Source: Eledone cirrhosa (lineage: Eukaryota). Taken from it: a DNA stretch of 64,000 bases. The notes under the pieces are model-generated. The model worked only from the letters and a program-made list of their open reading frames with translations, had not been told where the DNA came from and did not search any database. Location of the stretch: contig OZ024741.1 of the NCBI GenBank assembly GCA_964016885.1, positions 178,126,001 to 178,190,000 on the forward strand, given 5' to 3'. Each line of letters starts with the position of its first letter. Position 1 is the first letter of the stretch. Both the position numbers and the translations under genes were made by a program. Below, in pieces: positions 22,521-59,218 of the stretch.

Positions 22521-22904
22521 ACGCAATCACATGCGCACACACACACGCACACATACATGCACACACACACATATATATATATGTATATATATATAATATA
22601 TACATATAATATATATATATATGATATATATATATTATATATATATGTATATGTATTTTTAACCGTTGGTCAATCACTGATAAACATTGATTGCCAAATA
22701 AATTAACTATGGAGATATAATATAAAAGATACAGAAGCGAAAACCAATCCAGACCAAAGAGTGAGTGTGTTCAGTCATTATTTCTAGCAATATTATAACA
22801 ATATGACCCTCGCCAATTATAACAATATATATATATATATATATATATATATATATATATATATATATATATAGATATATATATATATTAAAATAACAGA
22901 TTAA

Positions 22905-22955
22905 AGTTTAAGCAAAGAATCGCTGCTTTCATCCTTAACAGGATCTTCTGAAACT
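22905..22955 (-). ncRNA. Type I hammerhead-like motif, U4A core variant (PLE-1 pLTR)
   Basis: agttt-CAGAAGA-stem II-GAAA-gcag..ttgc-TT-aaact; further copies at 25583-25633 (+) and ~38008-38056 (-). Confidence 0.5.
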
Positions 22956-23883
22956 AACAAAGTCAATCTATAAACGCAGAACTGGATATTTCAAAAAACG
23001 TTGCACCCGGAGGAAGACAGGAAGACGATACTTTGGTTCGTGGTAACGTTCGCTGGCAAAGAACGGGAAAAAACGAATAATACGTCATTAATAGGAGCGG
23101 TGAAAAACAATTACGCGCAAAGACAAAACCACGTTTATGGTATAAAAGAGGTCGTAGACTAATGTTCTCTTAGGTGGTGCATAGAGACGTTCTCTGGCAA
23201 TGAACGAAAAAACGAATATAATAAGTCATATGTGGAGCGTGGAGAACAATAGCACGCAAAGACAAAACCACGTAAATGGTATAGCAGAAATCGTAGACTA
23301 AAATTCTAACTAGGAGACCAAATGAATCTCCGCTACAAAGTTAAGAACAAAGTAAATAAATACAATACAGAAGTAATAGAAACAAATAAATACATACACG
23401 CAAACAGATACGTACATACACAAGCATACGCAAAACCTTACCATGGGTATACAAAACCACGCACATATAAATATGTGTGTGTGTGTATGCTTGTGTACAA
23501 ATAAATAAATAATTATATAAACGTATATAAGTAAATAAATACGTATATAACAAGCGCACACGCATACCTACATATAAATACACGAATGTTCGGAGACGTA
23601 AGTCAACTAAAACAAGAAGTACACATATACACACACCCACCATACGTACGAACCTGCACACTCACGCGGACGCAAAACTCCCGTATACACATAGCCAAAC
23701 CCTAAATACCAGAATATGTAAAACGTATACGCTATAACAGTCAAATATACGTACGAGAAGGTATACATACCTTCACAAAACATACGGGTAATATATACTT
23801 ACCTATGCAAATAAATAAAGGAATAAACAAAACATATACTTAGCTCCCACATCAAGACGTAAAATATCCACGTTATGATCGTG

Positions 23884-25371
23884 CTATCCGTTAGGGTATA
23901 ACGTGGGGCTGTAATACAGGAAAGTTTTGTGCAATTTATGTTTACAAGCCGAAATTGCCTCAGATTTTTTGTTTAAGATGTGGTCTGTAGCGTAGAGTAT
24001 TTCCAGGGCCTCAGCGGCGCAGAGGTCACATGGTCTTTTATTTCCGTTATACGATCTAGCCCTAGCTAGGATCTCCCAGTGTAACTTATATTGGGTGTGG
24101 TTGTCTTTTAGGCTCCAGATATAAGCTGAAAGTGACGTCATATTCCTTCTTAGAGGGTAACGAAAAGAATGGGTATGCATGTAAAGACGCTGCTTGAAAC
24201 TATTGGCGGTTAACCCTATGTAGGCCCTACGGGACGTGGGTGTTACAACCTTACATTTGTAGACAATGTTACTAGAGAGGCATTTCCCGGATAGGGGGCA
24301 ATCAGCCCGATTCTTACAATTACAGTTAGTACTAACTACTGGGTTGCACGTGTTCCTACGGCTAGGTAGTTTAGCTAAATTTGGAGCTGTGATGTTATGT
24401 GCAAGGTTAGGAGTCGTAGAGTAAGAAATTTTAATAGTATTTCTATTAAAAATTTTACTATCTTTATGTGTAGGGGGAAAATGCTTCGTAATAAGGGAAA
24501 GAAATATCTTAGCTAATGGTGTGGCCACCTCCATATTATATGGTGGGTTAAACCAACAAATGCGACGGGATCTATTTCTTCTAGGTCTATTTTCGTACTC
24601 TGTATATGCTACCTTATCGACAAATCCACTTCGAGCAAGAGCTTCATTGTAATAAGTGGAATGGTCGTTGAAAATGCGCTCGTTTGTGGAAAGACGGGAA
24701 AGCCTCAACGAAACGTTTCTTACCAGGTTCTTGGTTATGCTGGCAGGATGGTTGGAATGCTTACTTATGTAATTAAGCGTATCATTCGGCTTTCTATACG
24801 GGGAATACAACCCATTCAATAAATTGAGGGTAACGTCGAGGTAATTAACGACCGAGAGATTGGCCTCAACCTGTATAGAGAGGTTGAAGACTTTAAAGAA
24901 GGCTGTGAGTTCTTTTCTGAACCTGTCGCAAGCACGAGGTCCGCACTTAGTCATGGTCAAAAGACCATCGTCACGGTACAAACCATCGTCCTTGATAGAG
25001 AAAAGAAGGAAAAGGCCAATAAGATCAGTAACCTCCGCAGAGTCACTGGCGCCCATAATCACGTCGAATGGGGTACTATTGGATTTTTTTATCCAAATAG
25101 AGTCGTCGAAATTAATCACCGACTTTCGGGCATTAAGGATGACATCAACTTCAAAATCCTTAACCACTGTGAGTGTTTTAGCGAAATTGATAGCTCTAAG
25201 GAGAAGTGGTAAAGTGATGGAGGAGCAGTAATTGTTGATGTCGAATTGGATAAATCGGCAATGTTCCTTGTTACATATGCCGTTGAACCAATCAATCACC
25301 GCGAAAGAATTGTTCCACAGTGCGAGAGGGGCCAAACTTCTAATTTCAGGTATAATTCTATCAAGAATCAT
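23884..25371 (-). CDS. PLE reverse transcriptase + GIY-YIG endonuclease (C-terminal ~495 aa, open)
   Basis: FIQFDINNY, MGASDS, LYRDDGL, VNYLDVTL, YRKP, SNHP; CNC..CPL...C linker; IVY..YIGLT..FKQR..H; CDLC..E. Confidence 0.9.
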   Translation of the reverse strand: MILDRIIPEIRSLAPLALWNNSFAVIDWFNGICNKEHCRFIQFDINNYCSSITLPLLLRAINFAKTLTVVKDFEVDVILNARKSVINFDDSIWIKKSNSTPFDVIMGASDSAEVTDLIGLFLLFSIKDDGLYRDDGLLTMTKCGPRACDRFRKELTAFFKVFNLSIQVEANLSVVNYLDVTLNLLNGLYSPYRKPNDTLNYISKHSNHPASITKNLVRNVSLRLSRLSTNERIFNDHSTYYNEALARSGFVDKVAYTEYENRPRRNRSRRICWFNPPYNMEVATPLAKIFLSLITKHFPPTHKDSKIFNRNTIKISYSTTPNLAHNITAPNLAKLPSRRNTCNPVVSTNCNCKNRADCPLSGKCLSSNIVYKCKVVTPTSRRAYIGLTANSFKQRLYMHTHSFRYPLRRNMTSLSAYIWSLKDNHTQYKLHWEILARARSYNGNKRPCDLCAAEALEILYATDHILNKKSEAISACKHKLHKTFLYYSPTLYPNG

Positions 25372-25793
25372 TTTACTAAGTCTACCTAAATCGGACTTCG
25401 TAGGGTTAATAAGCCGAATAGAGGGGTTGTTCGGAAAATTGGATTTGTGATCCTTCAGGGTAAAGTGGGGAGAGATAGGGTCCAGAGAACGTTACCACGA
25501 ACCAAAGTATCCTCTTCTTGTCTTCCTCCGGGTGCAACGTTTTTTGAAATATCCAGTTCTGCGTTTACAGATTGACTTTGTTACTTTCAGAAGATCCCGT
25601 TAAGGGTGAAAGCAGCGATTCTTTGCTTAAACTTTAATCTGTTATTTTAATAAATATTTGCTCTACGGTTCTTATATATTTTGATATATATTTTCCTTAT
25701 CGAGCCCTCTTTGGATTTTAGTCTTCAATTTTATTATTATTACCATATATATATATATATATATATATATATATATATATACATATATATATA

Positions 25794-26176
25794 TATGAAT
25801 GTATATATAGTGTATTTTGCAATACACTGTATGCTTAATTAAAAGCATTTCGAAGACCTTATGCTATTGTTTTAGAGTAGTGATAGTCTCACTTACTTTA
25901 ATTTTCAGCAAACAGGGGAGATAAAGCCGACAGGGCCATGTTTCGCATTTGTTGATGCTTATCAAGGCTAACTACTCCCCCTGTTTGCCGAAAATCATGG
26001 ATGTTTGATTCTTATAGAATTAGAGTAAATAATAAGGAACTGATTATACAGAGCGGTTGCCGGTCAAGCAGAAATTGAAAATTAGAATTGGTGCTTTGAA
26101 ATAGCTATATATATATATGAATGTATATATAGTGTATTTTGTAATACACTGTATGCTTAATTAAAAGCATTTCGAA
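25794..26176 (-). repeat. Retrozyme-like family R3, ~1.2 units
   Basis: Homologous to the 318-bp unit at 58226-59200; terminal redundancy of ~60 bp; starts in (TA)n. Confidence 0.8.
25925..25969 (-). ncRNA. Type I hammerhead ribozyme, U3-A8 variant
   Basis: agcc-TTGATAA-gcat caacaa atgc-GAAA-ca tggccc tg-TC-ggct. Confidence 0.78.
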
Positions 26177-58200: not shown

Positions 58201-58353
58201 CATATATATATATATATATATATATATGGAAGTATATATAATGTATTTTGCAATACACGTTATGCTTAATTAAAAGCATTTTGAAGACTGTATGCTATTG
58301 TTTTAGAGTAGTGACAAATTCACTTACTTTAATCTCAGCAAACAGGGGAGATA

Positions 58354-58399
58354 AGCCGACAAGGGCCTTGTTTCGCTTTTGTTGAAGCTTATCAAGGCT
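58354..58399 (-). ncRNA. Type I hammerhead ribozyme, U3-A8 variant (R3)
   Basis: agcc-TTGATAA-gctt caacaa aagc-GAAA-caag gcc cttg-TC-ggct. Confidence 0.8.
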
Positions 58400-58993
58400 A
58401 ACTACCCCTCCTGTCTACTGAGATTACTGATGTTATATTCTTATAGAATTCTAGTAAATATTCAAGAGCTGATTATACAGAGCGATTGTTGGTCAGGCAG
58501 AAATTAAAAATTAGAATTGGAGCTCTGAAATAGCAATATATATATGGATGTATATATACTGTATTTTGCAATACACTTTATGCTTAATTAAAAGCATTTT
58601 GAAGACCGCATGCTATTGTTCTAGAATGATATAAGAATATAAGATCAGTAATCTCAGTAGACAGGAGGGGTAGTTAACTTTGATAAGCTTCAACAAAAGC
58701 GGAACAAGGCCCTTGTCGGCTTATCTCCCCTGTTTGCTGAGATTAAAGTAAGTGAATTTGTCACTACTCTAAAACAATAGCATACGGTCTTCAAAATGCT
58801 TTTAATTAAGCATAAAGTGTATTGCAAAATACATTATATATACATCCATATGTATATTGCTATTTCAGAGCTCCAATTCTAATATTTAATTTCTGCCTGA
58901 CCAACAATCGCTCTGTATAATCAGCTCCTGATTATTTACTAGAATTCTATAAGAATATAACATCAGTAATCTCAGTAGACAGGAGGGGTAGTT

Positions 58994-59039
58994 AGCCTTG
59001 ATAAGCTTCAACAAAAGTGAAACAAGGCCCTTGTCGGCT
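58994..59039 (+). ncRNA. Type I hammerhead ribozyme, U3-A8 variant (R3)
   Basis: Same motif, with G-U closing stem II. Confidence 0.78.
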
Positions 59040-59218
59040 TATCTCCCCTGTTTGCTGAGATTAAAGTAAGTGAATTTATCACTACTCTAAAACAATAGCA
59101 TACGGTCTTCAAAATGCTTTTAATTAAGCATAAAGTGTATTGCAAAATACATTATATATACATCCATATATATATTGCTATTTCAGAGCTCCAATTCTAA
59201 TATATATATATATATATA

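Follow-up and report, generated by a model that had tools for sequence, protein, structure and literature searches.

Penelope-like elements (PLEs) of the Hydra clade carry a C-terminal GIY-YIG domain with RWK, DKT and CxCX5C motifs, lack CCHH, and occupy (TA)n targets with an inverted 5'-truncated copy and a tail often confined to one end; how tandem and inverted PLE insertions form has been named an open problem (PMC8557442, Craig et al. 2021). In Adineta vaga Penelope, head-to-head copies are the most frequent, target duplications measure 8-10 bp, and pseudo-long terminal repeats (pLTRs) mobilise other sequence in trans (Arkhipova et al. 2013, PMC3846280). The purified PAc Poseidon PLE, a predicted dimer, nicks and extends both strands of an AT-rich target, and two adjacent internal start sites of its reverse transcriptase (RT) bound the tail in vitro (Frangieh et al. 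2024, PMC11167929). PLEs have also been proposed as mobilisers of retrozymes (Cervera and de la Pena 2020, PMC7229834; Li, Clavereau and Pollet 2026, bioRxiv 10.64898/2026.07.22.740005), whose metazoan units measure 150-450 bp or somewhat more. Here we analyse 64,000 nucleotides of the Eledone cirrhosa genome (GCA_964016885.1, contig OZ024741.1, positions 178,126,001 to 178,190,000; "the window"), in which three PLEs (PLE-1, PLE-3 and PLE-4) adjoin three families of hammerhead-bearing repeats, R1, R2 and R3.

The basis for the mobiliser of animal retrozymes has until now been co-occurrence and pLTR similarity. The words "inverted" and "orientation" are absent from the main text of PMC7229834; the main text examined of bioRxiv 10.64898/2026.07.22.740005, supplements aside, holds no insertion-end analysis of retrozymes, and the consulted part of PMC13282606 makes no mention of ribozymes. 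Comparisons with published systems refer throughout to the accessible parts of the cited articles. We find strong evidence that a single insertion footprint is real and general in the E. cirrhosa genome, and consider it likely that R1-R3 are mobilised by PLE RT/GIY-YIG proteins, probably by cDNA priming from both ends of the cut target. The element classes are known ones; what is new is quantitative evidence for mobiliser and mechanism, and it is indirect.

A common insertion footprint

Self-comparison of the window revealed eight inverted structures, namely PLE-1, PLE-3, PLE-4, R1, R2, R3, a palindrome (R4) and a fold-back (R5), each with a minus-strand part on the left and a plus-strand part on the right (Table 1). 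The sense strand was set by the open reading frame (ORF) in the PLEs, by complete hammerhead motifs in R1, R2, R3 and the palindrome, and in the fold-back by relatives with a complete motif and an upstream ORF. From 21 kb onward the window is a TA-separated pile of elements (genome size, 3.0 Gb). An earlier note on this DNA had claimed this geometry, with most outer ends abutting (TA)n. All eight structures exist as described there, and only three boundaries had been drawn too short: the palindrome starts at 28765 rather than 28828, the fold-back at 38066 rather than 38145, and PLE-4 ends at 54263 rather than 54152, the omitted piece being in each case the one-sided tail. With these corrected, a TA run adjoins all 16 outer ends, and each of the eight elements combines a short (A) with a long (B) 3' end. 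Single-orientation exceptions inside the window, absent from the earlier note, are an R3 copy (~25795-26105) and an R1 copy (59220-60028).

Genome-wide, a first look returned 401 (R1), 738 (R2) and 1225 (R3) candidates, ranging from dispersed monomers to multimers, of which the best 40, 40 and 38, respectively, were scored; these are best matches and not a random sample. With further stretches added, merging gave 95 loci, and for 92 of them positions were converted to unit phase. Segments below 50 nt and 95% and groups below 150 nt were filtered out, and the junction count excludes three single-orientation R1 arrays longer than 12 kb. All 73 strand switches were head-to-head (R1 20, R2 20, R3 33; 70/70 without the three of the window), so that random orientation, which the earlier note had named as a refutation, was not observed. 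Counted after the ribozyme cut, each family has two 3'-end phases (R1 ~214/273, R2 228-233/302, R3 140/168). Among 72 complete two-armed insertions, 53 paired one A with one B end, three had alike ends and 16 carried one non-canonical end; by family, A+B against alike pairs numbered 15:0, 16:0 and 22:3 in R1, R2 and R3 (binomial p 4e-13 for the total of 53 vs 3). Canonical 3' ends touched TA in 117 of 146 cases versus 559 of 10080 background positions (5.5%), which bears out the suspected (TA)n enrichment; the corresponding values were 8/21 for single-arm 5' ends and 3/18 for non-canonical ends. Every end site is rich in pyrimidines and shares 1-5 nt with the adjacent TA flank, and contigs of an independent run terminate in TA at R2 phases 228, 233 and 302. 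Among 14 incidental copies, found at loci fetched for other families, the three fully canonical pairs were all A+B.

The PLEs behaved alike. In 90 PLE-1/3/4 loci (window loci included, window PLE-3 counted twice, L138/L139 and L209/L212 probably duplicates, and many arms extending beyond the fetched stretch), 33 of 33 strand switches were head-to-head, 87 of 104 canonical ends lay at TA, and the second arm ended short in 16 cases and long in none, the other (long) end being forced by the query. Nineteen of 25 R5 copies were two-armed, all head-to-head, with the second arm short in 17 and long in none (long end again query-forced). Since the longer copies L241 and L245 run on into the 3' untranslated region and the end of a Hydra-like ORF, R5 is a truncated Hydra-type PLE 3' end and does not represent a non-coding family. 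The proposal of the earlier note that non-coding repeats obey the rule thus stands for R1-R3; the fold-back belongs to a PLE, and the palindrome is not clearly a non-coding family.

As the footprint of R1-R3 equals that of the adjoining Hydra-type PLEs, PLE proteins likely move R1-R3. Because R1-R3 also share the PLE tail, that is, two fixed 3' ends, one per arm, the connection is stronger than had been argued from orientation and (TA)n; the footprint, tail included, supports mobilisation by PLEs without being the direct proof it was called, and no partner PLE was found.

Junctions, templates and priming

Junction, variant and cut-site analyses covered 67 loci, the 72 two-armed insertions minus five below 88% identity. 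Clear ~10-nt target duplications around both arms occur in three R2 insertions outside pure TA (L034, L038, L043), and C/G-containing duplications in six out of 53 insertions, as compared with 11 among 912 mismatched pairs; elsewhere in R1-R3 they are hidden within TA. Because the ~10-nt duplications enclose both arms, the arms appear to stem from one event with staggered nicks, which would leave a priming-competent 3' end on each side.

The ribozyme cut is crossed by 118 of 134 arms (partly by query design) and by both arms at 51 of 67 loci, so the template was presumably a circle or an uncut multimer. Cut linear monomers were rejected as main template, since 5' ends are not enriched at the cut (3/134). 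In R2, units differ by 0.55-0.59% within and between the arms of one locus vs 1.7% between loci; arm-to-arm distance was below between-locus distance at 18/18 R2 and 24/30 R3 loci, the effect being weaker in R3, and recurrent R2 variants were found in both arms 28 times vs six times in one arm (expected 4.3). Overlaps at the 67 junctions range from 0 to 5 nt and reach at least 2 nt in 39 of them, compared with 65 of 180 in simulation (p 0.0015). This figure derives from a like-for-like simulation; the first microhomology test was discarded as overstated, having set BLAST overlaps against an exact-match null.

An inversion preceding integration, in which a self-primed antisense transcript would give a PLE-driven hairpin whose ends the endonuclease resolves at staggered A and B sites, seems to us rather unlikely, even though both of its components, self-priming (PMC3846280) and the tail as a product of endonuclease-mediated resolution (PMC8557442), have been proposed in the literature. 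It would explain the one-each pairing and the shared variants directly, and it fits R5, all 19 two-armed copies of which stop 130-150 nt from the long end, as well as the window palindrome. In R1-R3, however, junctions are near-symmetric at only 7 of 67 loci, a number compatible with uniform, and junction phase differs at every locus, which argues that junctions arise during insertion rather than by a simple snap-back. Moreover, arm length is independent of end type (the longer arm lies at A in 24/49), and the tail limits coincide with RT start sites seen in vitro (PMC11167929).

Ordinary target-primed reverse transcription from one end, followed by repair in which RT or a host polymerase extends the second end along a second RNA or displaced second-strand DNA of sense polarity, with no coordinated two-site complex, is improbable. 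It predicts alike ends about half the time, and three of 56 were seen. It would accommodate the 21 scored single-armed copies, the inserts at 12 of 67 junctions, several of them templated from nearby unit sequence, and the R1 arms, which often differ in recurrent variants. It would also suit the single arms joined directly to the inverted arm of another family (R2 in L048:1376-2381, R1 in L179:7700-7850), which reflect either insertion from two templates or a subsequent deletion between adjacent elements.

Similarly improbable, and slightly more so, is that R1-R3 are tandem pLTRs of unseen autonomous PLEs, always truncated before the ORF, or that a different TA-specific retroelement moved them. 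R5 did prove to be a truncated PLE end of just this kind, and only the ~40 best matches per family were scored; nevertheless, none of the R arms in the 95 merged loci leads into a PLE ORF, arms go on unit after unit, the longest run spanning 36 kb with 92 or more unit matches, and the tail and head-to-head form have been described as PLE-specific (PMC8557442). A fold-back artefact of assembly or sequencing, or a later inverted duplication of single copies, can practically be discounted, because it would mirror the flank and both ends, whereas the flanks of R1-R3 differ, their ends lie at two distinct fixed sites that recur in independent contigs, their junctions are asymmetric rather than mirror fold-backs, and target duplications are present; that no listed contig of four runs, perhaps from another individual, bridges the R3 junction at 58460-58700 is uninformative.

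Asymmetric junctions, duplications, cut-crossing arms, shared variants and end sites therefore favour two-end priming by one PLE complex. Such a complex, likely a dimer, would nick both strands ~10 nt apart in (TA)n, and the two 3' overhangs would anneal to the U-rich/UA sites A and B, located either on one bound RNA or on two RNAs of one lineage. Both cDNAs could then grow toward the 5' side of the RNA along a template that is circular or an uncut multimer, for which strand displacement would be needed, stop at variable points and join through 0-5 nt of microhomology. We tentatively go further, at somewhat below even chances, and suggest that an asymmetric PLE pair primes both DNA ends at two fixed sites on one RNA, that protein-free ribozyme circles hijack this machine, and that retrozyme insertions record bidirectional rolling-circle reverse transcription, which would explain the inverted pLTR and one-sided tail of PLEs. 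Priming from both ends of a break, already suggested in the earlier note, has thus gained supporting statistics, and it is still something that we infer.

Several observations weigh against PLE-driven mobilisation with priming of both ends. In vitro, the PLE showed no strand preference between the start sites and no target homology (PMC11167929), whereas the ends described here overlap TA by 1-5 nt. The one-each rule is broken by the three R3 insertions with alike ends, and a non-canonical end occurs in 16 two-armed copies. Of the seven switches in the incidental copies, six were head-to-head; the seventh lies in an R1 low-complexity stretch at a locus edge. R1 arms were not significantly closer to each other than to other loci (10/13, p 0.12); recurrent variants occurred in both arms 12 times vs 123 times in one arm in R1, and 5 vs 54 times in R3, and gene conversion between arms could be an alternative source of the variant sharing in R2. 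The microhomology is modest, and an exact-match recount gave no excess, although this recount understates it because it stops at polymorphisms. The two R5 arms share a single stopping point, the outcome expected from self-priming. Lastly, no autonomous partner PLE emerged: R1-R3 units had no significant similarity to the 3' ends of PLE-1/3/4 or to 77 endonuclease-downstream regions. A PLE near the R1 array in L179 was considered as the R1 partner and rejected.

Elements of the window and their relatives

R1-R3 are best read as non-LTR retrozymes, for which circle formation and self-cleavage are predicted. Their units of 420, 466 and 318 nt, respectively, are without coding ORF and low in GC. 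R1 and R2, related to each other at 68% over 211 nt, have a type I hammerhead with full core and palindromic helix III (for R2, Rfam match HH9, E 3e-6, below gathering score), while the R3 core has U3-A8 in place of C3-G8, a variant that presumably cleaves. One R3 unit and one R1 unit of the window are mutated in the motif. Predicted circular folds of R1-R3 have z values of -6 to -12 against 30 doublet shuffles, which is suggestive only. R1 arrays reach at least 18-36 kb, and three long R1 loci are single-orientation.

Further observations concern the same repeats. U3-A8 instead of C3-G8 is common to three families (R3; R4, 29013-29042; R5-PLE, L245). R1 forms satellite arrays of one orientation with at least 43-92 unit matches (L183-L190, L175-L176; C12:20.40-20.43 Mb, C28:45.65-45.69 Mb, C1:97.0 Mb). 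In one sequencing run of unknown type, a 496-nt contig forms a closed loop across the R2 unit of 466 nt (56207-56672) at depth 4.5. Locus-wide fixed variants on the sense strand comprise 17 A>G vs 3 T>C in the three families (sites non-independent), possibly a trace of RNA editing; no such excess exists among single-copy variants. Rfam miRNA matches in the window were dismissed as hairpin or TA artefacts.

Motifs assign PLE-1, PLE-3 and PLE-4 to the Hydra clade. All three carry RT-GIY-YIG frames; RWK and DKT both occur in the PLE-3 frame 34821-35282, PLE-1 and PLE-4 being truncated before them, and the CxCX5C linker is present in PLE-1 and PLE-3 and degenerate in PLE-4, with CCHH in none. Pfam matched GIY-YIG in PLE-3 only (E 0.002, below cut-off) and detected no RT domain in the window PLEs. 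Neither a pattern scan nor Rfam revealed a canonical hammerhead in the 3' ends of PLE-1/3/4, the Rfam search being insensitive, since it also missed the R4 and R5 motifs; the R5-bearing PLE has a hammerhead.

Table 1. Arms of inverted elements in the window (positions counted from its first nucleotide)
Feature	Position	Strand	Description
PLE-1 left arm	22889..25491	-	5'-truncated Hydra-type RT-GIY-YIG ORF 23884-25491 and 3' region, short (A) end in TA
PLE-1 right arm	25482..25745	+	3'-end copy with ~88-nt tail, B end in TA
Palindrome (R4) left arm	28765..28974	-	63-nt tail included, B end
Palindrome (R4) right arm	28976..29119	+	short (A) end; type I hammerhead, U3-A8 core, ~29013-29042
Older head-to-head copy related to R5	29190..29389		short end left, long end right; absent from earlier note
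PLE-3 left arm	32805..34204	-	3' part of ORF, 3' region, ~132-nt tail, B end in TA
PLE-3 right arm	34189..37701	+	tailed upstream pLTR, three-frame ORF 34821-37185, 3' pLTR, short (A) end in TA
Fold-back (R5) left arm	38066..38206	-	78-nt tail, B end
Fold-back (R5) right arm	38209..38270	+	short (A) end in TA
PLE-4 left arm	51921..52138	-	short (A) end in TA
PLE-4 right arm	52126..54263	+	truncated ORF, 3' region, ~111-nt tail, B end in TA
R1 left arm	54359..54804	-	420-nt unit, long (B) end, hammerhead motif 54662-54632
R1 right arm	54806..55660	+	two units, short (A) end, hammerhead motif 55420-55450
R2 left arm	55735..55954	-	466-nt unit, long (B) end
R2 right arm	55952..56900	+	two units, short (A) end, hammerhead motifs 56176-56206, 56642-56672
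R3 left arm	58218..58625	-	318-nt unit, short (A) end
R3 right arm	58621..59200	+	long (B) end, U3-A8-core hammerhead motif ~58998-59035

The stop shared by the R5 arms (window 38066-38270; L221-L245) lies inside loop II of the hammerhead, unlike in R1-R3; a fixed RNA 5' end or an RT block possibly lies behind it. R5 is adjoined by an old PLE-1 3'-end fragment with tail (37896-38056, minus strand). Relatives of R4 were drawn from incidental copies. Further hammerhead motifs lie in other TA-flanked elements of the window (45337-45368, ~28621-28667). A young 380-nt element with a hammerhead-like motif (L246-L265), mostly single-armed, has its 5' end at (TC)n and its 3' end in TA; the 380-nt element near the R1 array in L179 is a separate family. 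The minus strand at 49979-50743 holds the 3' part of another PLE, not of Hydra type, with a CxxC linker and a GIY-YIG-like end. Degraded copies of long interspersed elements lie at 305-14783 and 40781-42505, and we take them to be L1/Tx1-like and RTE-like by their motifs.

Comparison with described systems

Much of the framework is already in print, including the head-to-head form of PLEs (PMC8557442, PMC3846280), which the earlier note had treated as known, their tail at one end only, TA as the target, the pair of RT start sites, extension on both strands and the hypothesis that links retrozymes to PLEs. PLE-1, PLE-3 and PLE-4 share with the Hydra clade its motifs, (TA)n targets, inverted copy and one-sided tail. 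They differ in tail length, 78-132 nt in the PLEs here against 30-40 in the Hydra-clade account, and in the hammerhead, called universal in that clade and not detected in canonical form in their 3' ends; end pairing, counted here, is given no count in the consulted part of that account (PMC8557442).

R1-R3 resemble metazoan non-LTR retrozymes in their ORF-less tandem units with a type I hammerhead per unit and low GC, in strongly self-paired predicted circles and in a range from monomers to long arrays; they also agree in target duplications above 4 bp, with ~10 nt at three R2 loci. The link to PLEs rests here on the insertion footprint, without pLTR homology, and in the earlier studies on shared ribozymes, co-occurrence and pLTR phylogeny (PMC7229834, bioRxiv 10.64898/2026.07.22.740005).

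With Adineta vaga Penelope, R1-R3 share the head-to-head form and ~10-nt duplications; that element was explained by self-priming on an antisense template (PMC3846280), whereas R1-R3 junctions are mostly asymmetric. For PAc Poseidon, the start sites showed no strand difference in vitro and inversions were left unexplained (PMC11167929), while genomic copies in E. cirrhosa have one arm per site.

The footprint on retrozymes, the near-strict rule of one arm per site and a twin-priming model for PLEs were not found in the articles consulted. Being independent of family, the footprint (head-to-head, one arm per start site, TA, ~10-nt duplication) ties retrozymes to the PLE insertion problem, and both questions become specific tests using short RNAs. 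For annotators, it means that many palindromes resembling miniature inverted-repeat transposable elements in TA-rich animal genomes are retrotransposed. In the twin priming that Ostertag and Kazazian are said to have described for L1 in 2001, both target ends prime cDNA and a 5' inversion is joined by microhomology. The inverted part of L1 would there reportedly consist of upstream sequence, primed at variable internal sites, whereas in the E. cirrhosa insertions both arms represent the same 3' region and start from two fixed sites.

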